This document shows positions 5,723 to 27,460 of a stretch of 32,000 nucleotides of DNA, in pieces; the first letter of the stretch is position 1; every line of letters begins with the position of its first letter. The stretch lies in contig OZ246396.1 of the NCBI GenBank assembly GCA_965230905.1, positions 60,001 to 92,000 on the forward strand. The letters run 5' to 3'. The notes beneath the pieces were generated by a model. The model saw nothing but the letters and a program-made list of their open reading frames with translations. It ran no database searches and was not told where the DNA came from. The DNA is from Candidatus Saccharimonadota bacterium (lineage in GTDB: Bacteria; Patescibacteriota; Gracilibacteria; UBA1369; 2-02-FULL-48-14). A program made the position numbers and the translations under genes.

Positions 5723-5799
5723 GGACGATTAGCTCAGCTGGTTAGAGCGCCACATTGACATTGTGGAGGTCGGTGGTTCGAGTCCACTATCGTCCACCA
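5723..5799 (+). tRNA. tRNA-Val (anticodon GAC), CCA encoded
   Basis: Hand-folded cloverleaf. Acceptor GGACGAT/ATCGTCC; D arm GCTC-AGCTGGTTA-GAGC; anticodon arm CCACA-TTGACAT-TGTGG; variable loop AGGTC; T arm GGTGG-TTCGAGT-CCACT; discriminator A; then CCA (5797-5799). Confidence 0.92.
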
Positions 5800-5854
5800 T
5801 CATCTTTTGATGTATCTGTTTTTATGATATAATGAATAGATTAAAACTCCCCTA

Positions 5855-6802
5855 ATGATTGATGCAGAAGGAACCTATCGACAAGTGAGTTGGTATAAAT
5901 ATGACGAAGGACCAAAGCCATTTTGTGCTCAAGTGGGAGATCAATTATTAAGGGCAGAAAGTCTAGATGGGCTTCGAGGTTTAGTCGATGGAGAACTAGA
6001 TGGTGCAAGGAACGATATGCATGGAAGGATTGTGGTAGCAATGGATTCAGAGCCATGTCCAGGAGTGAATAGAATACCTAGATATTCAGATGTATTAAGG
6101 AAGTATATGCCAAGAGATGGTATTACCCCTGAAAGACCTAACCCTAAACTTTTAACAAAAGAAAATAGAGACAGGGTGCTAGAAATAACTGAAAAAGCCA
6201 CCGAGGAATACGGTAAAAAAACGACTGCTGAACCTCAAGAGGGACATCTGGTAGAAACTAGGGAGAATATTGGTAGTGGCAGGTCATTTACAATGAGCGC
6301 AGAAATATTCAAAACACCCAATCATTTACTAAAGGAAGATGTCACTTTTCATATCGATGAAGGTACAAACTACCTAGGGCATTTCACATTATCTCGGGAG
6401 GGCGAACTCAGTAAAAATATATGGAGTCTTTTCCACAGAGAAATCTATAAAAAAGAGTATACGGGAGGAAGTGGGCATGAACTAGGTGCTAGCAGAATTT
6501 TAACCGATGCCATGTATCTTTTTATTCAAGATCGAGCGGATAGAACTGGAGAAGAAGTAACTGTATTAATTGAGTTATCTCAACCTCATGTTGCAATTTG
6601 GGCTTTAAAAGAAGGGTTTCAGCCAGAAAATGGTGAACAAGAGAGAAGATGGCAACAAATGCAAAATGGAAACGATCTCGTTATGAAAGGTGACCATGTG
6701 TATCCAAATACCATTCCTCCAGGTTTTGGTTGGGATAAATTTGATTATGAGGCAGGATTTCGAATCAGGTTTAAAAAAACATTTCAACCAGTTGTGATTT
6801 GA
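5855..6802 (+). CDS. hypothetical protein (island gene A); possible GNAT-like C-terminal half
   Basis: 315-codon ATG ORF, 21 nt downstream of a TATAAT (5828-5833). It looks AT-rich and uses AGA/AGG Arg codons. The stretch IYKKEYTGGSGHELGASRILTDAMYLF ... LIELSQPHVAIWALKEGFQPE loosely resembles acetyl-CoA-binding motif A and the following strands of GNAT acetyltransferases. This is a weak call made by eye only. Confidence 0.6.
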   Translation: MIDAEGTYRQVSWYKYDEGPKPFCAQVGDQLLRAESLDGLRGLVDGELDGARNDMHGRIVVAMDSEPCPGVNRIPRYSDVLRKYMPRDGITPERPNPKLLTKENRDRVLEITEKATEEYGKKTTAEPQEGHLVETRENIGSGRSFTMSAEIFKTPNHLLKEDVTFHIDEGTNYLGHFTLSREGELSKNIWSLFHREIYKKEYTGGSGHELGASRILTDAMYLFIQDRADRTGEEVTVLIELSQPHVAIWALKEGFQPENGEQERRWQQMQNGNDLVMKGDHVYPNTIPPGFGWDKFDYEAGFRIRFKKTFQPVVI

Positions 6803-6822: not shown

Positions 6823-6862
6823 AAAAGTTCTAGGATCATCCTCTTAGCCCCACCAGATCGAC
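6823..6862 (+). repeat. island inter-cassette element, copy 1
   Basis: AAAAGTTCTAGGATCATCC-tctta-GCCCCACCA-gatcgac. It is identical to copy 2 at 29 of 33 positions, and all four differences fall in the 5-nt spacer. Confidence 0.8.
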
Positions 6863-6866
6863 TTTA

Positions 6867-7697
6867 ATGTCAGTTTATGTTTTAATATTGTCTTTTACTG
6901 TACCTCACATGCTCGAGAGACAAACCGTTTACGCCATTGGATCAGCGCACGCCATGAAAGGCGCAGACATAAACCATCCTTATGAAGTTCCTGTACAAAC
7001 GGATCTGATGGCCCACTTAGTCCGAACAACAGGTGATGTTAGCCTTTTCATCGAAGGATTAGGATTGGATGGCTGTAGAGGTATTAAAGAAATAATGGGA
7101 AGACTTGAAACAGATCCACGTAGACTGGAGCAGTTAATTCCTAAATTTTTTGCGCAAAGAGACTTCGTGATGTGGGAACAAGCCATTAAAATGCGTGCCC
7201 TATTGGAACTAAAAGCAGAAGGGCATTTCATAGAACCCGTCCCAACGGAAGTTGATCAAAAATCTCGAGATGCTGCACTTCGTTTTACTTATCGTAACCC
7301 AACTGAGGAGGACTTTGGGCTATTGGAACGATATGCTGAAGAGGTATTAGGAGATAGAAGTCTTGTTTTAGCGGCACTTGAAAAAAGCACGGGAGATAAG
7401 GATAAAAGTTTCCTTGAGTTGGTACAGGGCATGCGCGCTCACTACGGAGACTTAGAAATGGCACGAAACATTGAGACTCGCGGAGGAGCAAACAACTTGC
7501 TCATGTTTGGGAAGGGACACCCTCTGAAGGGTTGGGGTGAAAGGTTTCAGCTCTCCCGTTTAGACATTTCTGGGTACGAGGGCGGAGTGGTTGGAATTTC
7601 CGGCTCCTTGCCTGAAACTATTCGACCAAGTTTAAATGACTTTCGTGCGACTGAGCCCAGAGCACTCGTTTTGACGGGCTGGGTTCAGGCAAAGTAA
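6867..7697 (+). CDS. hypothetical protein (island gene B)
   Basis: 276-codon ORF from ATG 6867. An alternative ATG at 6909 (MLERQ...) fits better if the TCGACT-17-TTTAAT promoter-like sequence at 6858-6886 is real. No recognisable motifs. Confidence 0.6.
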   Translation: MSVYVLILSFTVPHMLERQTVYAIGSAHAMKGADINHPYEVPVQTDLMAHLVRTTGDVSLFIEGLGLDGCRGIKEIMGRLETDPRRLEQLIPKFFAQRDFVMWEQAIKMRALLELKAEGHFIEPVPTEVDQKSRDAALRFTYRNPTEEDFGLLERYAEEVLGDRSLVLAALEKSTGDKDKSFLELVQGMRAHYGDLEMARNIETRGGANNLLMFGKGHPLKGWGERFQLSRLDISGYEGGVVGISGSLPETIRPSLNDFRATEPRALVLTGWVQAK

Positions 7698-7734
7698 AAG
7701 TTCTAGGATCATCCGCGGTGCCCCACCATTGACC
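7696..7734 (+). repeat. island inter-cassette element, copy 2
   Basis: AAAAGTTCTAGGATCATCC-gcggt-GCCCCACCA-TTGACC. It begins inside the TAA stop codon (7695-7697) of gene B. Confidence 0.8.
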
Positions 7735-7779
7735 TTAGCTTATACTTTACTTGTAAACGGTAAGACCTGTTAGTGGTTC

Positions 7780-8072
7780 CTAGGTGTTCCCTTCCATCGG
7801 TTGGCCACAGCTTAGGGCATTCGAGCTAACAGGCTCGTTTTCGTTTAGATGCAGACCCTGCTCTGTTGTGATGTGTTTACGAAATAGCTTGTACCATTCA
7901 AGGTCGTTCTTTTCATGTTTCCTGAAAATGCCCCATGCAAATAGGTCAGCAGCTTGAAGTTCAAAGTAAAGGCCTCCAGTTCGCTTTTCAACGCTAAAAC
8001 TTCAGCGTAGCATTTCGTTCGTAACGTTTTGACATTGTTTGTGGATTTTGCGTATATGGATATAATCAACAC
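7780..8072 (-). pseudogene. possible frameshifted gene remnant
   Basis: Two overlapping minus-strand frames together span the gap. One is the 75-codon TTG-start ORF 7845..8072. The other is a start-less open frame 8001..7780 (…GLYFELQAADLFAWGIFRKHEKNDLEWYKLFRKHITTEQGLHLNENEPV…), which reads like real protein but contains no ATG/GTG/TTG until near its 3' end. No family recognised. Confidence 0.25.
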
Positions 8073-8089
8073 TTACTAAGATAAACAAT

Positions 8090-8833
8090 ATGACACTACA
8101 ACTTAGAGAAATGTGGGTAAGGGGCGAAACAACACCGCTTCCTTGCAGAGGATATCTTCACGCAAAGGCACTTGAAAATATTCTGACAATTACAGGAAAA
8201 TCTGCAAGAAAAGCTATGATGAAACCTGGTCCATTTGATGAAGATGAATTTCGAACAACACTAGAAAAACGCTTCATAGAACAGAACGAGGCACACAAAG
8301 GGGCGAGTTGTAATGCAGCACTGGATTCTTTATCGGCTGAAGATCTTAAAAGTTTGTGGGGCATGGAAAGTAGTGGAGGAATGCCTGGCGTGGCTTTTGC
8401 TGATAGAAAATTGTTTTTATGGGCAGATACTTGCCCAGTAACATCGGAGGAACGTAGAAATTTATGTTATAACGAATTAGGGGAACAAGAATCAGACATA
8501 TGGTATCCCGGTTCTTTTGGAAATGCTGATTCTTTAGCTAAATCTTGGGGAGTTAGTCTGTTAAGACCTCAAGTTCGTCATGAAATGCAAGGAAAGTTTC
8601 CTTTAGAAACAGATGGAAGCTTAGTTTGGTTAAATACTCGTGATGCAATTCTTCGTGAAGGTAGAGCATTTAGATCACACATTGCTGGAGTAGACAGATC
8701 GGATTATTCTATACGTAATCACACAGATTATTGGGGGTTTAGAACTGAAAAATTAGTAGCCAATAAATTTCCAGCAAAACAATCTTTATTTGCCAGCTTT
8801 ATGGAGGGTTTCAGTGGCGGACAATTTGACTAG
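8090..8833 (+). CDS. DUF4256-like protein (island gene C) with an N-terminal extension
   Basis: The stretch LEKRFIEQNEAHKG … LWGMESSGGMPGVAF … FLWADTCPVTSEERRNLCYN … LVWLNT … YWGFRTEKLV follows the order of conserved blocks I recall for DUF4256 (ME.TGGEPDVV, F.DCSAESP.GRR..CYD, SW..T, GFRGSLKV). It also aligns with 18802..19434. Confidence 0.7.
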   Translation: MTLQLREMWVRGETTPLPCRGYLHAKALENILTITGKSARKAMMKPGPFDEDEFRTTLEKRFIEQNEAHKGASCNAALDSLSAEDLKSLWGMESSGGMPGVAFADRKLFLWADTCPVTSEERRNLCYNELGEQESDIWYPGSFGNADSLAKSWGVSLLRPQVRHEMQGKFPLETDGSLVWLNTRDAILREGRAFRSHIAGVDRSDYSIRNHTDYWGFRTEKLVANKFPAKQSLFASFMEGFSGGQFD

Positions 8834-8861
8834 GATCATTCCCTGTGCCGCACCATTGACA
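8830..8861 (+). repeat. island inter-cassette element, copy 3
   Basis: CTAGGATCATTCC-ctgt-GCCGCACCA-TTGACA. The span from CTAGG to ACCA is 26 nt, as in copies 1 and 2. The TAG stop of gene C (8831-8833) lies inside it. TTGACA-17-TAGCAT follows, about 20 nt upstream of the GTG start at 8909. Confidence 0.75.
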
Positions 8862-8908
8862 CCCGTATCGAATAGTTTTAGCATGATCTCTTTGCATAAA
8901 AATTATCT

Positions 8909-9904
8909 GTGACTCCAAGTATTTTGGACGCCTACGGGCCCTATAAAGAAAAAATCCGCGGCGCAGTTCGATCGGGTCATATTATTTGTCCAGATGGCTC
9001 GCCCGATTATGGCCCTTTTGATAGACACGGCCACTTGCCTAACAAAACTGACGAAACTCTGTTTTTGCGGGCGGGGGCCTTGAGAGAATGCAATACTCGA
9101 TCTTTGAATGCTGGTGCCGTAGCGGTTCTTGAACGCCTTTTCAAAGAAGATGTTCCCCGTAGATTTCTAGAATTGGGAGCAGGTTCCGGAAAAGGGTCTT
9201 TTGATGCATGGAAATTGGCGGAAGTTGCTCAAAGGACTCTTCTAATCGATACGGTGAGTAAAACTCCCGTAAGCCCCTATCACGGCTTAGAACAGAGCGT
9301 TCTTAAAATCGCTCATGATCTGCCACCTGATATTGTAGAAAGAACTGCAGGCGGCTTGAGGGACCTTGTGGCCCAAACCTTGAAGTATCGAAATGATCCG
9401 GCCTACCTTCGTTTACGTTTAGACGCGGCTTTAGCCTTATCTGAACTCGTTGCAGGACGTATTTTTAGAACTTTGAATGAGCCTTTTATAGAGCATCAAT
9501 ATATTGGGCGTTTTAAGGAACTGAACTTGGCTCCTGGGGCGTATGATCTTATTTATGATCGTTTTGGCGTCGTCTCAACAGGCGTGTTCACAACATATAA
9601 TCTCGCGATCCTGAAAAAAACTCTCGGCCTTTTGAATCGAGAGGGAATATTTGTTTGCGGGGCCTTGCGTGATCGTTGCGAATTTGTGGAGTGCGGTGCT
9701 GATGACGCTGTGGACTTAGGAGAATTTATTTGTGTTTATGGGCCGGATAATTCTGACGATGAGGACTATGTGGGTTTATTTTTCCATAGAGAAAGTACGT
9801 GTGCAGCTCAGTTGTTGCCCTTGCTTGAACCTCTGACGCCTCATCATGGGGTTTATTCTCCGGAAGATATGGGACCAGTCCTAGAGAGGCTAGGTACTAC
9901 TTAA
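8909..9904 (+). CDS. putative class I SAM-dependent methyltransferase-fold protein (island gene D)
   Basis: GTG-start ORF of 331 codons. FLELGAGSGKGS fits motif I (E/DxGxGxG), LLIDTV fits the acidic end of beta-2, and YDLIYDRFG and LLNREGIFV fit motifs II and III. The ~85-aa N-terminal extension is unassigned. Confidence 0.6.
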   Translation: MTPSILDAYGPYKEKIRGAVRSGHIICPDGSPDYGPFDRHGHLPNKTDETLFLRAGALRECNTRSLNAGAVAVLERLFKEDVPRRFLELGAGSGKGSFDAWKLAEVAQRTLLIDTVSKTPVSPYHGLEQSVLKIAHDLPPDIVERTAGGLRDLVAQTLKYRNDPAYLRLRLDAALALSELVAGRIFRTLNEPFIEHQYIGRFKELNLAPGAYDLIYDRFGVVSTGVFTTYNLAILKKTLGLLNREGIFVCGALRDRCEFVECGADDAVDLGEFICVYGPDNSDDEDYVGLFFHRESTCAAQLLPLLEPLTPHHGVYSPEDMGPVLERLGTT

Positions 9905-11564
9905 ACCAACCCCCAATTTTGCTTGCCCAGCCTTTCACTGCAGCCGTAGCTTTTTGTGTGAAGGATGGCTCAGGTGCGGGCGCCACTTTAGGTGCAGGAG
10001 CGATGACCGGTGCCTTTGCTACTTGAATAGCATGTGCTTCAGGAATATCTACTACGCTCGCGAGGCCCATTTGTGCAGGAGTGCTGATTGGAAGAACCTC
10101 TTCTTCAACGAGGTAGTCGGTCAAATCTTCATCCTCATCTAGGGCAAGTTCTTCATCTTCCACGACGGATGTGGATGCAAAGTTCATAGGTTCTGGAGCG
10201 TCGTAAACGTTGCTTTGTTCAGGCACGAATTCAACGAGAACGGGTGTAGGCTGAGTGAGGTCTGTTGCGGTTCCAAGATTCATTGGCTCTGGTGCGTCGT
10301 AGAGGCTTGCAGATTGAGCGCTTGGGTACTGGAAGTGAGCCGGTGAAGGCGGAGGTGTAGCTACGAAGCTAGCAACCGTTTCTTTGACTTGTTCTGGAGT
10401 GATCTTTGCGAGCTCGGCTTCAGCTTGAGCTGGATCTTCTGCGATGCGTGAATCTTTAATGAGGGCGATTTGTTTAGCCAGCGCTAAAGCGGTTTGGTCG
10501 GAATTGTTTGGATCGTCTACTGAGTCGAGATTTTCGTCTGAAGCAATATGTGCCAAAGCATCATCGAGGTTTGTGATGGGCGTAGGTGAAGCATCAAGGC
10601 TGGCTAAAACTGCATCGTATCCACGCCACTTTTCTAGTTTTTCAACTACTAAATCCAGGGCGAGTTTGCTATCTCTCCAAGGGCTGCCCAAATCTTGATA
10701 AGAGTTGGCATCTGCATAGAGTCCGCTCACGAGTTCATTGGTAGCAGCGGCTGTGAGACGAGTATCTTTTGAGGGCATTTGAACTTCCACTTTTCCATAG
10801 AGCGTGGTGGGTTCAACTGGAGAAGCTTCACAAGGAGTTTCTTCCTCGACGCATTCTCCATCCTCTGGCAACGACGCGAGGTAAGCAAGCTCTGCGTCAT
10901 TAGGCCCTTCACACACACGAGAATCGTCCATTTCTTGAGGGCGGTTTGCATAGAATGCTGCACCTAAGGCTCCACCAGCTAGCAAAGCACCCATTGCAGC
11001 AAAAATTTTCGAGCGATGATTGTTTAGAAAACCTGTAGATAGAGATTTACCTTCAACAAGCTTAACTGGTTCAAATGCTGGCGCAGAGGCTGGTTTTACA
11101 CCAGGTTTTGTGGGCTCATCGGCATCCCAGTCAGCTGTGTCAGCCTTTTTCGTTTGAGGCAGTGGAGCTGGCGATAAAAAATCAGGATCTATTGAGTTTG
11201 GATTGAAATCAGGAAAGTAGGTTTTAATTGCGCTGAGCAAAGAGTCCCTTCTATGTGCTGGCGTGTCGGCTGGCAAGCCTAAATACACTTCAATCAACCC
11301 TTTTCCGCTTAAGTTTGTAAACGCTTTCCCTCTTTCTGTAACGCTCAAAGGGTCAGCCCCACCTTGACCAAACCCATGATACAAAAACTTTACCCCCTTG
11401 GCTTCAGCTTCATGATTAGGCTCTTCTGAGATGTCTACCCTGATTCTAGCAGATCCTTCATCATCCTTAAACTCTTCTGAGTCGTCTACTAGGACTCCAG
11501 CGGTTTCTTCATCGATTCCACTTGTATCATAGGATTTTTGGACTGTAGAAGAAAGTTTCATCAT
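9897..11564 (-). CDS. hypothetical acidic single-pass membrane protein
   Basis: 555-codon ATG ORF with one central hydrophobic helix (IFAAMGALLAGGALGAAFYA). The very acidic C-terminal half carries a duplicated YDAPEPMN motif and an Ala/Pro-rich tail (APVIAPAPKVAPAPEP). Its TAG stop overlaps gene D by 8 bp in convergent orientation. Confidence 0.7.
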   Translation of the reverse strand: MMKLSSTVQKSYDTSGIDEETAGVLVDDSEEFKDDEGSARIRVDISEEPNHEAEAKGVKFLYHGFGQGGADPLSVTERGKAFTNLSGKGLIEVYLGLPADTPAHRRDSLLSAIKTYFPDFNPNSIDPDFLSPAPLPQTKKADTADWDADEPTKPGVKPASAPAFEPVKLVEGKSLSTGFLNNHRSKIFAAMGALLAGGALGAAFYANRPQEMDDSRVCEGPNDAELAYLASLPEDGECVEEETPCEASPVEPTTLYGKVEVQMPSKDTRLTAAATNELVSGLYADANSYQDLGSPWRDSKLALDLVVEKLEKWRGYDAVLASLDASPTPITNLDDALAHIASDENLDSVDDPNNSDQTALALAKQIALIKDSRIAEDPAQAEAELAKITPEQVKETVASFVATPPPSPAHFQYPSAQSASLYDAPEPMNLGTATDLTQPTPVLVEFVPEQSNVYDAPEPMNFASTSVVEDEELALDEDEDLTDYLVEEEVLPISTPAQMGLASVVDIPEAHAIQVAKAPVIAPAPKVAPAPEPSFTQKATAAVKGWASKIGGWFK

Positions 11565-11614: not shown

Positions 11615-14600
11615 CTACAAAGCTGTGCACCACTCGCATTCGCCACAGGCGGTGAACTCGTCGACATCGAGAAAACGGAGATTTTGGATGTCGTCGTAGA
11701 CGGATTTGATCTGGGTGCGGAGGTCGGCGAGCTCTTCGGGGGTCGGGTAAATGGGCTTGCGTATATAATCGCCTGTTTTGCTCTTTTGCACAAAGTCTAT
11801 TTCGCCGCTGACCATGGTGTAGGGGAATTTTTTGGAGTTGTCGCAGAGGAGCTTGTAGAAAAGGATCTGACGGCGGTACTCCCCTTGCGGACCGAATTCG
11901 GACTTTTTGTTGTCGGGCATGCCGGTTTTGTAATCCACCACATGCACCGACCGGTCGGCTTCGTCCTTGAGTTCGATCTTGTCGAGTTTTCCGGTGATGG
12001 GCACTCCATCCACATTCACGCCATGGGAGCGGAAGTCGTATTCAACCAGAACATCGGGGCGGAAAGTGTCGCGGTAATGATCGTAGTAATCGGCCAGGGT
12101 GCGTTTGCCGAGGTCGAGGCCGCCACGAAAATCTTGCAGGGAGAGGATTTCGCGTTGGAGGTGTTTTTCAAACTGATCGAGCACGGTTTCTTTGGCGGGT
12201 GTGCTGCCTTCGCGGACTCCTACGTAGAGGTCTTTGAGGGCTTCGTGAACAGCGGTTCCAAAAGCGAGGGATTTGGACTTGGCTCGCGGCACGCGCAGCA
12301 CATTGTTGTAGTAAAAAAGTCGCGGACAGCGGAGGTAGTTATTGAGGTGGGTCACGCTCATGGTGTAGTTCTGCAGGAGGCTCGCGATGTAGGCGCGGTG
12401 GTCTTCGGTGAGGCTGGGCTTGGGGACTAGGAAGAGCGTTTGTAGATGTTCGAGAGCTTCTTGTTCAAGGTAAGTGGTTTCCAAGTTTTGCTTCAACGAG
12501 TCGTCTATTTCGCTTAGGAACATGGAAGGAACGGTCGGTCGGCCTTGATCGTTTTCTTTGGGATACGTGAGGGTAACGGATTTTTTTGCACGGGTGATGG
12601 CCACAAAAAATAGTCGGCGTTCTTCTTCATTTTTCTCATGTGGCTGCGTGACTTTGAGCAGCGTAGCGGGCAGCTTGAGTTTGGCGTGGTCGGGCGCGTT
12701 GCCCCAGTGGCGGTCGACGGCGTTCATTATAAAGACGTGCTCGTACTCGAGCCCCTTGGAGCGGTGCGCGGTCATGAGGCAGACGGCGTCTTTGTTGGTG
12801 ACGAGTTCCTGCGCGGGCAGACTGAGACCGTTTTCTTTGAGCAGGTCGAGGTAAGCGATGAAATTCGTGAGCGTCATGCCAGGGTTGGCGCGGTTCCACT
12901 GTTTGAGTTCGGCGAAAAGACTGTTGAGGCGATTGAGTTCTTCGAGCTGATTTTCTTGCGCGAGGATGCGCGTGAGGTAGCCGCTGTCCTGGATTAGCAG
13001 ATCGAAAAATTCAATGAGTGGACGGTTGATGCTTTCTTTATGCCAGCTCATGAGCTTGTCCGCAAAGTCGCTGAAGGCGGGGTTTGCTTTCATGGCTTCG
13101 AGGAAGCTTTTTCGGTGGGCCTCGCGGGTGAGCTTGGCGATGCTGAGCGAATCGAAATCCCAAAAGTCGTAATGCAGAATGGTGAAGAGATGCGATTCGT
13201 CTTCGGGGTCAGCGAGGTAGCGTAGAAGGTTGAGGAGTTTTTGAACGCTTTTGTCATTGAGGAGATCCTGGCCGGCGGAAAGATGGAAAGGAATCTTCAT
13301 GCGTAGGAAAAGTTCCACCAGGCCTTCGGCTTCGCGGTTGCTGCGGTAGAGAATCGCAATTTCAGAGGGCTTGGTGCCGTCGGCGAGGAGACGCTGGATT
13401 TCTTTGGCCAGGAAATAACGCTGCGAGTCAGCGTTGTCGAGTTCCGCGACGCGGATGGGCTGCGCGGGGTGCGGCACGTTGGAGTGCAGCGCTTCGAATT
13501 TTTCGTCGAGGAATTGAGCGAGGTTTTGTTCACTGTGGGCGATGAGCGACTGCGCCGCATCAAGCACGGTTTGCTGGCTGCGGTAGTTCTCGCGGAGCGT
13601 AACCACTTGCACGGTTTTTTTGTAGAGCTGGTAGAAGTAGAGCAGGTTTTCGAGCGAGGCGCCCTGAAAGCGGTAAATGGATTGCTTGTCGTCCCCCACC
13701 ACGAAGATGTTTGGGTTTTCAAAAAACTCGCCGAGGAGGCGAACCACCTCGTTTTGAGCACTGTTGGTGTCTTGGTATTCGTCCACCAGAATGTATTGGA
13801 ATTGCTCTTGGTAACGGGCACGGAGTTCTGGATTTTGCTTCAGTTTTTCCGTCACAAAACTGATCATATCTTCAAAGTCGTAACGGCCGCGGCTGCGCAG
13901 CATGTCTTGGTAGTTTTTGTAGATTCCGCAGAGGGCGAGTTGTTTGGGAATTTCGCGCTGCCATTCTTCAAACGCATCCTTGAGGGCGCTCTTCATTACG
14001 GTGCGATTTTTTTTGTCGTCGGTGTCTCCGTCCAAATAGGCCGCGAAGGGCGTGCCAGTGAGTTCAGTTTTTATTCTTTCGAAATCGGCGGCGGCGAGCT
14101 GGTTGGCGTGTGTGCTGACGAAGGCCGTTATGGTTTCGGCGTAGCTGGCGATGAGCGCCTCCCCTTCTTGAACCACGGCTTGCAGTCGCTCGGGCGATGC
14201 GTTTTCACGTTTCAAATCTTGAATGGCCTTAGTGATGTCTTTCAAATAAAAATAGGGACTGCCAAAGGGACGGAGCGGCGTGTTTTCGCCGAGTTGGTCG
14301 AGCAGTTCGCGGAAAAACTGAATCCGCTCCACTTCGGTGAGGGCGCTGAGCTCACGGGCGAAGAGAAACTCCGTCGGGTAATCCTGAATCACTTCATTAC
14401 AGAAAGAATGGAAGGTGTGGATGCGCACGCCGTACGCGGTTTCGCCAATAAAACTGAGCAGACGTTTACGCATGGCCACGGCGCCGGATTCGGTAAAAGT
14501 GAGGCAGAGAATGTTGTGCGGCGCGGCTTGGGTTTTTCGTAAAATTTGCGCGATGCGCAGGGCTATCATTTGCGTCTTCCCCGTCCCGGGACCCGCCAAA

Positions 14601-14680
14601 ACCATCACCGGTCCTTCTATCTGGTCCACCGCTGATTTTTGTTCCGCGTTCAGCTGGTCATAGGCGGCTTCAAAGTTCAT
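11615..14680 (-). CDS. UvrD/PcrA-type SF1 helicase fused to a C-terminal PD-(D/E)xK nuclease with a Cas4/AddB-like Cys cluster
   Basis: Helicase motifs in order: LAGPGTGKT (Walker A), ILVDEYQDTN (II), VGDDKQSIYRFQGA (III), LRENYRS (IV), MTAHRSKGLEYEHVF (V) and FFVAITRAKKSV (VI). The C-terminal nuclease shows RCPRLFYY (first Cys), GKLDKIEL…VHVVDYKTG (D…D/E-x-K), QILFYKLL (QxxxY) and a terminal CGECEWC. Confidence 0.9.
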   Translation of the reverse strand: MNFEAAYDQLNAEQKSAVDQIEGPVMVLAGPGTGKTQMIALRIAQILRKTQAAPHNILCLTFTESGAVAMRKRLLSFIGETAYGVRIHTFHSFCNEVIQDYPTEFLFARELSALTEVERIQFFRELLDQLGENTPLRPFGSPYFYLKDITKAIQDLKRENASPERLQAVVQEGEALIASYAETITAFVSTHANQLAAADFERIKTELTGTPFAAYLDGDTDDKKNRTVMKSALKDAFEEWQREIPKQLALCGIYKNYQDMLRSRGRYDFEDMISFVTEKLKQNPELRARYQEQFQYILVDEYQDTNSAQNEVVRLLGEFFENPNIFVVGDDKQSIYRFQGASLENLLYFYQLYKKTVQVVTLRENYRSQQTVLDAAQSLIAHSEQNLAQFLDEKFEALHSNVPHPAQPIRVAELDNADSQRYFLAKEIQRLLADGTKPSEIAILYRSNREAEGLVELFLRMKIPFHLSAGQDLLNDKSVQKLLNLLRYLADPEDESHLFTILHYDFWDFDSLSIAKLTREAHRKSFLEAMKANPAFSDFADKLMSWHKESINRPLIEFFDLLIQDSGYLTRILAQENQLEELNRLNSLFAELKQWNRANPGMTLTNFIAYLDLLKENGLSLPAQELVTNKDAVCLMTAHRSKGLEYEHVFIMNAVDRHWGNAPDHAKLKLPATLLKVTQPHEKNEEERRLFFVAITRAKKSVTLTYPKENDQGRPTVPSMFLSEIDDSLKQNLETTYLEQEALEHLQTLFLVPKPSLTEDHRAYIASLLQNYTMSVTHLNNYLRCPRLFYYNNVLRVPRAKSKSLAFGTAVHEALKDLYVGVREGSTPAKETVLDQFEKHLQREILSLQDFRGGLDLGKRTLADYYDHYRDTFRPDVLVEYDFRSHGVNVDGVPITGKLDKIELKDEADRSVHVVDYKTGMPDNKKSEFGPQGEYRRQILFYKLLCDNSKKFPYTMVSGEIDFVQKSKTGDYIRKPIYPTPEELADLRTQIKSVYDDIQNLRFLDVDEFTACGECEWCTAL

Positions 14681-15200
14681 GAGATTCAGGTTCGCTTGGC
14701 TTGTTAAAGTGCAGTTCGGCTTTTCGCAAAAGGTCGCGGGCGTTTTCGTAGGTCAGGCGGCGCAGCGCTTCGGTGTAGGGGAGCCAGCGGAAATTCTTGT
14801 GTTCAAAGGAGATTTTCACCTCGCGCTCTTGCGTTTCGGCCACAAAATAAACCACCACTTTTTTCACACGTTCTTTATGCCCGCGGTTGAATTCGTAGTA
14901 CATCGGCTCCCGGTAGCCTTCGATGAAAACCACTTCCGTGATTCCGGTTTCCTCGGTGAGTTCGCGCAGGGCCGTGGCGTGCTCATCAACATCGATTTTT
15001 TCGACGTGACCCTTGGGGAAATCCCAGTGTCCGCCCGGGTAGTGAAGCAGTAGAAATTCTTTGCGGTCGTTTTCCATTCGGTAAACGATCACTCCGCAGG
15101 ATTTTTCATGCACATCCCGTCGGGGCACGCGGCTTCCTCTCGTTGATGCGGAATTGCCCTTCTGGTGAGAAGGTTTCTTTGGTGGATGATTGAACGTCAT
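14670..15200 (-). CDS. NUDIX hydrolase, Ap4A-hydrolase-like
   Basis: NUDIX box in WDFPKGHVEKIDVDEHATALRELTEETGI (REUxEExGU intact, with one extra residue in the upstream spacer). The PKGHVE context resembles NUDT2-type diadenosine tetraphosphatases. Its last 11 nt overlap the helicase start (tct CAT GAA CTT TGA versus ATG AAC TTT GAA). Confidence 0.85.
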   Translation of the reverse strand: MTFNHPPKKPSHQKGNSASTRGSRVPRRDVHEKSCGVIVYRMENDRKEFLLLHYPGGHWDFPKGHVEKIDVDEHATALRELTEETGITEVVFIEGYREPMYYEFNRGHKERVKKVVVYFVAETQEREVKISFEHKNFRWLPYTEALRRLTYENARDLLRKAELHFNKPSEPESHEL

Positions 15201-15307
15201 AATTGATTCAAGAGTAGCACAAAGCGGCGGCGGGCGGCGAGGGGATTTTTTACTACTTGACTAAACTAGTTGATATTTGAAACAATCTTTTCTCAAAAGA
15301 ATATTTT

Positions 15308-15781
15308 ATGGACAGAAAGCCTTTGATAGTGCCTCCTCATGACTTTACCTTTACAGGAGAGCGCATAGATATTGACGGTCTTGGTGTACACAAATTGTCC
15401 ACTCCGCCTACACACGAGCGATCTTTGCCTATGCAAGTACTGGTTCGTCAAAGCATGCTCATGGCCTTAATGGATAAACCCGGTCTTTTAAACCGAAATG
15501 GAGCTACACAAAGTGACTTTAGTCTAAAAATACCTTTTACATCACCCGCTCTGCAAGATTGGGTTTTGCATCTTTTACCTAGCCCCGACAAGGAGCAGTT
15601 CCCAACTGATTTTCTGGGATTGCTGGCCGGCGAAGGAGTATTAAAATGTCTACAGGGTGGCCGTGTTTTACAGATTCAACGAAAAACTTTAGATGACGCA
15701 GGCTTAGCCCTGACACATTCGGCCGTACTTCGAGTGAGCACTCCTGATTGGTGTTGGGAAAACCCGCAGGGAACTATTTAA
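15308..15781 (+). CDS. hypothetical protein (orphan)
   Basis: 157-codon ATG ORF with no recognisable motifs. The N-terminal ~50 aa resemble 2970..3527. Confidence 0.5.
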   Translation: MDRKPLIVPPHDFTFTGERIDIDGLGVHKLSTPPTHERSLPMQVLVRQSMLMALMDKPGLLNRNGATQSDFSLKIPFTSPALQDWVLHLLPSPDKEQFPTDFLGLLAGEGVLKCLQGGRVLQIQRKTLDDAGLALTHSAVLRVSTPDWCWENPQGTI

Positions 15782-15795
15782 AGCATACTGGTCTC

Positions 15796-15914
15796 AAACA
15801 CCTTTCTTTGCTTTGAAAATTTCAGGTTTTTGTACTTCGTGCAAACACTTTTCTTTGCTTCGCAAAGTACTCACTACGTTCGTAAAATTTTCTACGAAAA
15901 TTTCAGGTTTTTGT
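15796..15914 (+). repeat. composite direct repeats in the comF upstream region
   Basis: GAAAATTTCAGGTTTTTGT is perfect at 15815-15833 and 15896-15914. AAACACYTTTCTTTGCTT occurs at 15796-15813 and 15843-15860 (17 of 18 identical). In the second unit the two blocks are split by a 35-nt insert (15861-15895) whose 5' end completes the hairpin CTTTGC-TTC-GCAAAG (15853-15867). Confidence 0.7.
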
Positions 15915-16621: not shown

Positions 16622-17708
16622 TGCGTCACGCAGCACGCGGGGAAAACCCACGGGGGTGGAACAGTACAGCAATGAAATTATTTCAGCTCTTTTGGAGGAA
16701 GTCGGCGATTTTGACGTGCGGCTGTATACGCCGGAGTGGATAGCGAGATTTCCGCGAAAGCTTCAGAAGCGAATTCGGGCGAAGCGGCTGTGGACATTGC
16801 TGAGACTGAGCTGGGAAATGCTGTGGCATAAACCGGATATTTTGTTTGTGCCCGCGCACGTGCTGCCGTTTTTTGCACCGCGGGCGAGCTTTGTAACCGT
16901 GCACGATATTGCGTATGAAAAAATTCCCGAGTCGTATGGATGGCTGAAGCGAAAATATTTGCGTTGGAGCACTCGACGAGCTTGGCGGCGGGCGGCAAAA
17001 GTGATTGTGCCCACGGAATCGGTGAAGGTGGATTTGCTTTCGATTTATGGGGCGGATGCGGAAAAAATTGTGGTGATCCCGCATGGTGTTACTCCGCTGC
17101 CGGCGGTTTCGGCGGTGCAGGTGAAGAACTTTTATAAGAAACACGGCCTTTCACAAAAAGAGCCGCTCTTCTTCTTTATTGGCCGATTGGAAAGCAAAAA
17201 GAACCTGTTAACTTTGGTGGAAGCGTGGTCCATTGTACAAAAAATGTATTCGAAAGGACGGCTCGTGTTGGCGGGGATGAACGGACATGGTTTTGAGGAA
17301 ATTGCGGCACGGATTGAGAAGGAGAATTTGCGCGAAAGTGTAGTGACGCCGGGTTACATTTCCGAAGTGGAGGCGTCGTGCCTGTTTCATTCCGCGACGT
17401 GTTTTATTTTTCCGTCACGCGAGGAAGGCTTTGGCCTGCCGGTGCTGCAAGCTTTTGAAGCCGGCTGCTTGGTGATTGCATCCGATATTCCTCCCCTGCG
17501 CGAGGTGGCGGGCGATGCCGCGCTGTTTGCGGACCCGGGCTATGCGAAAGATTTTGCAGAGCAGATGATGCGGATTTTGGAGGATGAAAAGTTACGAGCT
17601 GATTTGAGTTTGAAGGCAGCGGTGCAACTTAAAAAATTCTCGTGGGAAAAGGCCGCGGCCGTTCTGGCTTTTGAATTTAGGGAATCTTCGTTAAACTCCA
17701 AGAAATGA
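16593..17708 (+). CDS. glycosyltransferase, GT4 family (GT-B fold)
   Basis: GTG start overlapping comF by 29 nt. N-terminal LLLGIDAS, and C-terminal PSREEGFGLPVLQAFEAGCLVIASDIPPLREVAGDAALFADP, typical of the GT4 nucleotide-sugar-binding half. Confidence 0.85.
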   Translation: MKKRLLLGIDASRSTRGKPTGVEQYSNEIISALLEEVGDFDVRLYTPEWIARFPRKLQKRIRAKRLWTLLRLSWEMLWHKPDILFVPAHVLPFFAPRASFVTVHDIAYEKIPESYGWLKRKYLRWSTRRAWRRAAKVIVPTESVKVDLLSIYGADAEKIVVIPHGVTPLPAVSAVQVKNFYKKHGLSQKEPLFFFIGRLESKKNLLTLVEAWSIVQKMYSKGRLVLAGMNGHGFEEIAARIEKENLRESVVTPGYISEVEASCLFHSATCFIFPSREEGFGLPVLQAFEAGCLVIASDIPPLREVAGDAALFADPGYAKDFAEQMMRILEDEKLRADLSLKAAVQLKKFSWEKAAAVLAFEFRESSLNSKK

Positions 17709-18801: not shown

Positions 18802-19434
18802 CTAGACCTCTAGCGAGCAGCGGAATCCATAAGCCAGACTGTGATCGAACGCATGAGCGTTGCGGGAAAAGCCAAGGTGCCCATACTTCGCGTATCTAGT
18901 TTTTGGAACTTTTTTGGTGGTTCGAAGCCAGCTGAAAGTGTGTTCGTCGAGCATAATCCCTTTGGATCTGAACGTGTCATAGACCGAAGGCTCCATGAGT
19001 TCGGCACCGAGTTGAGCGGCAAGGACTTCAGCCTCATAAAAATTGACATTACGGTGAGCAATTGGTGCCTCGGCGGAAAGGTCATCGAAACGGAAATTGC
19101 CGTTTGAGAGTTTGGCGGTCACCGTGAGCTCTCCGTGCTCGATGAGGCGACCCAGGATGGTGAGTTTCTCAGGAGATTTTTTGAGCTTAGCTTCGACTTC
19201 GGCCCACTTGATCCCGGTTTGAAGTTTAGCTTCTTTGGCTTCAAAATTGGCTTGGAGCGTTGAGATCGTCTGAAGATCTTCGGGGGAAAGCTGCGTTTGG
19301 CCTTCAAAGGAGGCTAGCAGTGCCTGGAGAGCAAGATTTTCTGGCCTCCCTCGTTCAAAAGCTGCTGCAGGTTCGCCAGCACTATCAGGAGAGCCGTTGA
19401 AATGATCTGAGTTGGTTTCGGTTGATTTTGTCAC
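18802..19434 (-). CDS. DUF4256-like protein
   Basis: GTG-start ORF of 210 codons, preceded on the minus strand by TGgTATAAT. The blocks KWAEVEAKLKKSPEKL, FRFDDLSAEAPIAHRNVNFYE, HTFSWLRTT and the C-terminal YGFRCSLEV match my recollection of DUF4256 and align with 8090..8833. Confidence 0.75.
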   Translation of the reverse strand: MTKSTETNSDHFNGSPDSAGEPAAAFERGRPENLALQALLASFEGQTQLSPEDLQTISTLQANFEAKEAKLQTGIKWAEVEAKLKKSPEKLTILGRLIEHGELTVTAKLSNGNFRFDDLSAEAPIAHRNVNFYEAEVLAAQLGAELMEPSVYDTFRSKGIMLDEHTFSWLRTTKKVPKTRYAKYGHLGFSRNAHAFDHSLAYGFRCSLEV

Positions 19435-27221: not shown

Positions 27222-27460
27222 CACGTTTCCCTTCCCCTGTTTAGTTCTCTGGGTGGATTTCTTCAACGGGAGCGAAAGCACTCGGATCATGATCCTCGTC
27301 CTTTCTTCCTTTTAGTTTATGTTTCATAAATCCGCCCAGAGAACCACGGAAAGGGAAACTGAAATTCTAAACAGAAGAAGGCTGCTTGGAGAGATTCAGC
27401 ATAAAGGCTCCCGCTGAATCGAACCAAGACAGGCTTCTGTATTTCTGTTTAGAATTTCAG
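27222..27460. repeat. two adjacent long imperfect hairpins (candidate structured RNA, bidirectional terminator or MITE-like element)
   Basis: Hairpin 1: 27225-27233 pairs with 27351-27359 (9 bp), and 27244-27260 pairs with 27328-27344 (17 bp including one G-U). Its 67-nt loop contains the perfect palindrome GGATCATGATCC (27284-27295). Hairpin 2: 27359-27376 pairs with 27443-27460 (18 bp, perfect). Inner helices are GAAGGCTG/CAGGCTTC, CTTGG/CCAAG and GATTCAG/CTGAATC. TTTTT follows on the plus strand. Confidence 0.7.

Follow-up and report, generated by a model that had tools for sequence, protein, structure and literature searches.

Directly behind a tRNA-Val gene in a 32-kb stretch of DNA (the window, positions 60,001 to 92,000 of contig OZ246396.1), small, unrelated gene cassettes follow one another head to tail, and a 33-nt element that recurs in this array probably represents their conserved right-hand end, an attachment-site-type boundary left by serial insertion. 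The cassettes are about 0.9-1.5 kb long, and the cargo of each is one or two genes, unrelated and for the most part orphan, with a small RNA in addition in one cassette. Their content varies between related genomes, one of which has an empty site. The element is conserved across these genomes, and the junctions between cassettes are situated at the hexamer CCACCA. The window originates from the Hainich groundwater metagenome (ERZ1292638) and belongs to an uncultured bacterium of the candidate phyla radiation (CPR), represented by a Peregrinibacteria-like metagenome-assembled genome with a 1.3-Mb contig. The closest relatives of its prolyl-tRNA synthetase (ProRS) are proteins named Candidatus Peregrinibacteria or Gracilibacteria.

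A repeat search of the window gives a single family of three copies, each 33 nt long, in agreement with the three direct copies of the preliminary description. The copies (E1, E2 and E3) and the tRNA gene ahead of them are arranged as listed here, with scores from the profile R1, which was built from six full copies of the element.

Positions 5723-5799, plus strand: tRNA-Val(GAC), intact (ARAGORN; Rfam tRNA 69.5 bits), with the 3' end ...GTCCACCA.
Positions 6823-6855, plus strand: element copy E1 with the sequence AAAAGTTCTAGGATCATCCTCTTAGCCCCACCA, right end of cassette 1 (R1 42.3 bits), its 3' terminus ...GCCCCACCA closing at 6855.
Positions 7696-7728, plus strand: element copy E2, the right end of cassette 2 (R1 38.7 bits), overlapping the TAA of gene g2.
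Positions 8823-8855, plus strand: element copy E3 with the sequence AATTTGACTAGGATCATTCCCTGTGCCGCACCA, right end of cassette 3 (R1 30.9 bits), with the TAG stop of gene g3 inside its CTAG.

The second and third copies are 88% and 70% identical to the first. The identity of copies 1 and 2 at 29 of 33 positions, noted earlier, holds, as do the overlaps with stop codons: the TAA at 7695-7697 closes an open reading frame ending at 7697, and the TAG at 8831-8833 closes one ending at 8833. The consensus of the element is AaaagttCTAG.AtCaTcC.ctgtGcccCACCA, or AaaaGTTCTAGrAyCaTyC-N5-GyyCCACCA in a degenerate form. Its conserved blocks flank a variable stretch of 5-7 nt, where the differences are concentrated. 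The core, CTAGGATCAT-N7-GCCSCACCA, has exactly three matches in the 32 kb, all on the plus strand, with 0.01 expected by chance from shuffles, and no additional match appears in the window at up to three mismatches. The spacer measures 7 nt, and a scan pattern proposed earlier, with a spacer of 9-10 nt, has no match. Two tentative further copies did not survive, since neither receives an R1 score with the filters off: the fourth (7776-7812) lies inside a DUF3800-V RNA at 7751-7844, and the fifth was placed at 9890-9922. No other copy is present in 48.5 kb of the source contig, with four substitutions allowed.

The matching locus was retrieved from five relatives (L033, L034, L035, L036 and L041) using ProRS as an anchor, giving a comparative set of six genomes with about 20 kb of flank in each. 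The contigs of L037, L039 and L040 stop short of the island and were left out of the comparison. The gene order ProRS, S8 peptidase, tRNA-Val(GAC), variable interval, UvrD-like helicase is conserved in the five relatives, where tRNA-Val has the same syntenic position and ProRS is 80-90% identical to that of the window. The site behind the tRNA is occupied in the following manner.

Window: four genes after tRNA-Val.
L033 (ProRS 90% identical): genes of 179 aa and 276 aa after tRNA-Val.
L034 (ProRS 89%): a 411-aa gene, then a convergent patatin gene.
L036 (ProRS 87%): an empty site (13535-13643), with 31 nt from tRNA-Val to the uvrD stop.
L035 (ProRS 86%): four other genes.
L041 (ProRS 80%): seven other genes.

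No two of the genomes have related cargo behind tRNA-Val, and BLASTP shows no match between any of the cargo proteins. The element is found in three of the relatives, L033, L034 and L041.

L033, positions 14296-14328, plus strand: full element, following a cargo gene at its 3' end.
L033, positions 14412-14433, plus strand: degenerate element.
L034, positions 15812-15835, plus strand: element with a 10-nt internal deletion.
L041, positions 15508-15540 and 16958-16990, plus strand: two full elements, with gene stops at or inside them.

All eight full or partial copies in the four genomes lie downstream of tRNA-Val and on its strand. The element is always at the 3' end of a cassette gene and always terminates in CCACCA, which is also the 3' end of the tRNA. 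In L041 the stops at 15507-15509 and 16966-16968 abut the element or fall within it. The identity between copies of different genomes is 19-28 of 33 positions (28 between E1 and the L033 copy), as high as within the window, and no copy occurs in about 100 kb of the relatives' sequence outside the hot spot. The number of cassettes ending in the element is three in the window, two in L041, one plus a remnant in L033 and one in L034. The island of the window has a G+C content of 42.5% compared with 50.5% for the remainder; among the element-bearing islands the G+C fraction is 0.425-0.45, and in the flanks it is 0.48-0.505. A recombination site delimiting cassettes was among the functions considered in the preliminary description, and this function is supported by the element ending unrelated cassettes in four related genomes, by the insertions at CCACCA and by the empty site.

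The distribution of the copies also bears on the idea that they are a neutral, functionless scar of a local duplication, for which there is only a very slight chance. The copies in the window genome are confined to 2 kb, and scans of public collections with the exact pattern gave scattered single matches only, five in genome contigs, seven in metagenome contigs and none in viral contigs, as would suit such a scar. These matches are due to chance, because they are single, come from scattered taxa and have no shared flanks. However, the genes and flanks between the copies are unrelated, the differences are clustered in one short stretch instead of being spread, and the motif is not restricted to its three places in the window, as had been expected of a scar, being kept in L033, L034 and L041 with entirely different cargo. 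Tandem gene duplication is excluded, because the four island genes of the window show no paralogy and the DNA between the copies and in their flanks is unrelated outside the element. The exact pattern was too strict for the scans, since the copies of the relatives deviate from it at 2-4 core positions. The sequence AGTTCTAGGATCATCC has 11 single matches in viral contigs, which are taken as chance; the degenerate consensus has none in viral contigs, and BLAST of the element and its downstream module against phage records gave no match.

The similarity among the element copies stops at CCACCA, and the sequence that follows differs. The following features of the window begin behind a CCACCA.

Positions 5800-5854, plus strand: 5' module of cassette 1, which begins at 5800 with TCATCTTTTG; extended -10-like TGATATAAT at 5825-5833.
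Positions 6856-6886, plus strand: module P, opening cassette 2, with the sequence GATCGACT-N17-TTTAAT, a -35-like box at 6858-6863 and a -10-like box at 6881-6886.
Positions 7729-7734, plus strand: -35-like box TTGACC, opening cassette 3, with no convincing -10 and not called by the promoter scan.
Positions 8856-8884, plus strand: TTGACA-17-TAGCAT, a promoter-like site before g4, the best in the promoter scan (10/12).

A module of about 35 nt, GATTGACT...TTTAAT (GAT(T/C)GACT-N17-TTTAAT), is found in four places: directly behind the CCACCA of tRNA-Val in L034 and L041, and directly behind the CCACCA of the element at E1 of the window and at the first element of L041. The alignments of the module begin at base 0 or 1 past CCACCA (p<=0.005 against shuffles), and the module occurs nowhere else in 177 kb. 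The 15-nt box GTTTTTATGATATAA, situated behind the tRNA at 5818-5832 of the window, recurs with 100% identity after the L033 element at 14354-14368 (blastn E 0.006; p 0.001). Since the module or box follows either the tRNA end or the element end, the insertions are placed exactly at CCACCA. The tRNA-Val 3' end ...GTCCACCA is the anchor, or primary site, of the cassette array.

All five copies of the module have -35/-10-like hexamers at a spacing of 17 nt, the -10 being weak (TTTAAT). In L041 and L033 the module can also form a hairpin with a T tract behind it, called terminator-like. The module behind CCACCA may be a promoter, a terminator or both. About 100 nt between the full and the degenerate element of L033 (14329-14433) hold only the promoter-like box homologous to window 5818-5832; this segment looks like a cassette that has lost its gene, an "empty cassette".

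The -35-like boxes into which the element copies run had been described before and are present as read (TCGACT at 6858-6863, TTGACC at 7729-7734 and TTGACA-17-TAGCAT). They are, however, the 5' module of the next cassette and not part of the element, and the distance from the element to the next box is 0, 2 or about 13-14 nt. It is nevertheless worth asking whether the element is a transcription-factor site (an operator, activator or UP-like site) upstream of the -35, through which the island genes would be regulated in common. All three window copies do run into such a box, the conserved blocks surround the variable 5-7-nt stretch, and the left block is near-palindromic (GTTCTAGAAC in L033 and TTCTAGAA in L041). 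Against these points, the L034 copy faces the stop of the convergent gene only 10 nt beyond it, the offset to the -35-like box varies, and the downstream module also follows the tRNA where there is no element. Furthermore, no copy precedes any other gene in the 48.5 kb of the source contig or the 100 kb of the relatives, and the island contains no regulator gene. A regulatory role is thus quite improbable, and the shared operator or activator of a regulon that was suggested earlier is unsupported. Readings of the element as a sigma-54 promoter, as an extracytoplasmic function (ECF) promoter and as a tRNA fragment with its T stem were dropped because the required spacing or pairing is absent, as judged from the sequence.

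The resemblance of the element to a tRNA end was first noticed through CCACCAT, which also extends across the end of tRNA-Val at 5794-5800; this observation was correct and is the key clue. The GTTCTAG of the element corresponds to the T-loop GTTCGAG of the tRNA, the element is about 5 nt longer than the tRNA 3' part, and its TCC.C....G..CCACCA may be compared with TCCACTATCG.CCACCA in the tRNA. Only CCACCA is strictly common to the element and tRNA-Val. The 3' two-thirds of the profile align to the 3' end of tRNA-Val with 8.8 bits in L034 and 9.8 bits in L041. The acceptor-like 7-mers of the element (GTGCCCC and TAGCCCC) cannot pair with the 5' strand of tRNA-Val, showing that the element has never served as a tRNA end. 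The exchange is therefore placed not in the T-loop but at CCACCA or inside it.

An action of the element in RNA, as a tRNA-like 3' end or as a processing or stability signal of the upstream mRNA, would agree with its constant position at the 3' ends of genes, with its terminal CCACCA and with the T-loop-like GTTCTAG at its start. It is extremely improbable, however, as the copies fold no better than shuffles on either strand (z-scores 0.2 to 1.9), the consensus fold has an energy of -0.4 kcal/mol, the acceptor stem has no 5' partner, and the copies have no Rfam match even at E<=5. It would also leave the junctions with unrelated DNA exactly at CCACCA unexplained. The processed RNA 3' end of the preliminary description accordingly has no structural support, and the check for covariation that it called for detected none. 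Folding of the copies as single-stranded DNA, with or without the downstream module, gives no structure.

Assuming that the element is the boundary of serially inserted cassettes, each insertion would take place exactly at the CCACCA hexamer common to the element and the tRNA 3' end. The order after insertion would be tRNA...CCACCA, followed by the new cassette ...element...CCACCA and then by the earlier content, so that the newest cassette would adjoin the tRNA. The element would be analogous to the attR of tRNA-targeting islands or the attC of integron cassettes, and the insertion would be performed in trans by a site-specific recombinase encoded elsewhere.

Several observations weigh against such a mechanism. 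No integrase or recombinase family is found in the Pfam lists for the island and flank proteins, about 20 kb in each of the six genomes, and in the source genome none occurs within about 10 kb upstream of tRNA-Val or about 34 kb downstream. Neither an excised circle nor an alternative array of the same strain is seen. The last unit has no element behind it in the window (g4) or in L033 (the 276-aa gene), although the simple model predicts one there, and the variable island of L035 contains no element at all. Unlike typical core sites, the element has neither inverted arms nor a hairpin: there is no inverted repeat inside it, CTAGGATCAT and GCCSCACCA do not form an inverted pair, and a dif/Xer-type or simple tyrosine-recombinase core, with two inverted arms and a 6-8-bp spacer, is not matched. 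In view of the recombinase-free flanks, the lack of core-site arms and of an attC hairpin, the element-less last units and the L035 island, a recombinase acting in trans can only be inferred. The similarity to the tRNA 3' half is also limited. When CCACCA is removed, a shuffle test gives p 0.001-0.009 for the copies of L041, where the similarity is significant, and p 0.04-0.99 for those of the window, where it is not. The element looks like a diverged tRNA 3' half, and because the similarity without CCACCA is significant for the L041 copies alone, its sequence suggests descent from a tRNA but does not establish it.

The main rival to serial insertion is homologous replacement, in which cassettes would be exchanged through DNA uptake and homologous recombination in the conserved flanks (S8 peptidase/tRNA-Val on one side and UvrD on the other), with no dedicated recombinase. 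The repeats of element plus module, about 70 nt long, would then act as internal patches of homology, much as in the "minimal mobile elements" of Neisseria. The element itself would be a 3' untranslated or terminator-associated segment that has been conserved. Both flanks are conserved here and the whole interval between them differs, including minus-strand genes and the L035 island with no element. Recombinase genes are absent nearby, in L041 about 40 nt are common to the tRNA-end-plus-module and element-plus-module repeats, and the hairpin and T tract that the module can form in L041 and L033 would fit a terminator-associated segment. On the other hand, the junctions lie at one precise hexamer and are not scattered across the homology, and the 33-nt element, with invariant blocks, ends unrelated cargo even at only 80% ProRS identity. 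The identity between tRNA and element is just 6-17 nt, which is too short for efficient RecA recombination, and the module hairpin has no covariation support. Homologous replacement is, on balance, rather unlikely, and the element is better regarded as the end of serially inserted cassettes.

The cargo of the window array consists of the following genes and RNA.

Positions 5855-6802, plus strand: g1, 315 aa, near-orphan cargo of cassette 1.
Positions 6909-7697, plus strand: g2, 262 aa, orphan cargo of cassette 2 (gene call).
Positions 7751-7844, plus strand: DUF3800-V RNA (RF02964), RNA cargo of cassette 3 (Rfam 49.9 bits; gathering score 37.4).
Positions 8090-8833, plus strand: g3, 247 aa, DUF4256 cargo of cassette 3 (Pfam PF14066, E 1.5e-11).
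Positions 8909-9904, plus strand: g4, 331 aa, which closes the array and has no element behind it.

The g1 protein belongs to no Pfam, NCBIfam, PADLOC or PHROG family, has two real homologues only among 1.84 billion representatives, and its single-sequence AlphaFold model (pLDDT, the predicted local distance difference test, of 38) is unusable. The gene g2, for which a start at 6867 had been given, is called from the ATG at 6909, and its product matches only itself in 5.8 billion proteins. The g4 protein bears a class-I methyltransferase-like ELGAGSG motif and has one detectable distant relative (31% identity), encoded in an unrelated small operon on JGI contigs with no element.

The DUF3800-V RNA is situated upstream of the DUF4256 gene g3 within cassette 3 and has its own terminator at 7822-7837 according to a terminator scan. 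No DUF3800 gene is found within about 48 kb of it, and the islands of the relatives have no such RNA. Its occurrence as cassette cargo may be a lead on this class of motif. A second DUF4256 gene, part of the core genome, is located at 18802-19434 on the minus strand, about 10 kb from g3. In L034 the 411-aa cargo gene (14569-15804) encodes a CX3CX2C motif (from ...TGCACGGAGGCTTGTTCCTTTTGTGAT...), as in radical S-adenosylmethionine (SAM) enzymes, and a patatin-like gene follows it on the opposite strand.

The upstream neighbours of the array are the tRNA, the S8 peptidase and a P/Q-rich conserved protein. A conserved 242-aa neighbour was considered as a candidate recombinase and rejected, being P/Q-rich and not recombinase-like. 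The right flank is formed by a 555-aa gene at 9897-11564 on the minus strand, which contains an internal 36-nt direct repeat, 96 nt apart, at 10170-10301, encoding ...YDAPEPMN.... A 496-aa protein with 42% identity to its product is encoded at the corresponding position of L034, and L036 has no homologue of this gene. Short-read contigs of the same or related populations (L002, L003 and L039) end inside tRNA-Val (window 5742) or 11 nt before E2 (7685), breaks that may reflect strain differences at cassette junctions. A perfect 12-bp palindrome, GGATCATGATCC, is found in a convergent intergenic region at 27283-27296; it has GGATCAT in common with the element, which is probably a coincidence.

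CPR bacteria have tiny genomes and many orphan genes, and to our knowledge almost nothing is known of how they acquire genes. The locus offers them a route of gene gain and loss that is concrete and open to test, since close relatives differ here only in their stacked one-gene units, each of which is delimited by a conserved element with the CCACCA of the tRNA at its end. The 33-nt profile, together with the tRNA-Val end, is a handle for finding cassettes, their free forms and the enzyme in metagenomes.

The closest parallels to the array are found among islands anchored at tRNA genes and among integrons. In the tycheposon islands of Prochlorococcus, successive integrations occur at one tRNA, and partial-tRNA repeats lie between the elements (Hackl et al., bioRxiv 10.1101/2020.12.28.424599); tRNA-targeted integration leaves partial-tRNA repeats as a general rule (PMC9897764, citing Williams 2002). 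The tRNA-Val locus resembles these islands in having an intact tRNA at one end, same-strand direct repeats that share the tRNA 3' end, tandem units whose content varies between close relatives, empty sites and a lower G+C content. It differs in that its units are only about 1 kb long with one or two genes, and in that no integrase, replication or excision gene is present at the locus. In addition, the repeat does not reproduce the tRNA 3' part faithfully, being about 5 nt longer and having an acceptor-like 7-mer with no complementarity to the 5' strand of the tRNA, and the host is a CPR bacterium.

With integron arrays (attI, attC and IntI) the locus shares single-gene cassettes of unrelated, mostly unknown function, each with a short recombination-type element at its 3' end that often lies over the stop codon, as well as a single, fixed primary site heading the array and a cassette content that varies between relatives. 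Unlike attC, the element is linear, with no R''-L''/L'-R' hairpin, and has GTTCTAG in place of the GTTRRRY core. No intI adjoins the array, a tRNA 3' end takes the part of the primary site, and the cassettes seem to bring their own 5' promoter-like module.

Two further systems are similar in part. Cis-mobilizable elements (CIMEs), which with tandem accretion are known from Firmicutes, are decayed integrative and conjugative elements (ICEs) of several kb with recognizable remnants. Like the cassettes, they form tandem units with no integrase and with att repeats at the end of a tRNA or conserved gene, presumed to be mobilized in trans; the cassettes, in contrast, are minimal units with no known parent element. 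Putative mobile promoters, reportedly described by Matus-Garcia et al. in 2012 as homologous promoter regions before unrelated genes, are comparable in that non-homologous genes are preceded by a short stretch of intergenic homology containing -35/-10-like boxes (here module P and the TTGAC boxes). The 33-nt element differs from them in lying upstream of the -35-like box, in occurring where there is no downstream gene (L034) and in being bound to one tRNA locus.

The locus has the architecture of both tRNA-anchored islands and integron arrays. It differs in having no integrase in cis, which both of them have, and no attC hairpin, which integrons have. It is possible, if doubtful, that it represents an undescribed integron-like gene-capture platform of CPR bacteria, in which the CCA end of tRNA-Val would be the primary site, the linear, non-hairpin, tRNA-end-like 33-nt element would take the place of attC, and the cassettes of about 1 kb would carry their own 5' expression module and be moved by a possibly new recombinase encoded elsewhere. 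Should the enzyme indeed prove to be new, the array would join integrons as a second cassette-array system; otherwise it would be a minimal form of tRNA-targeted island accretion.

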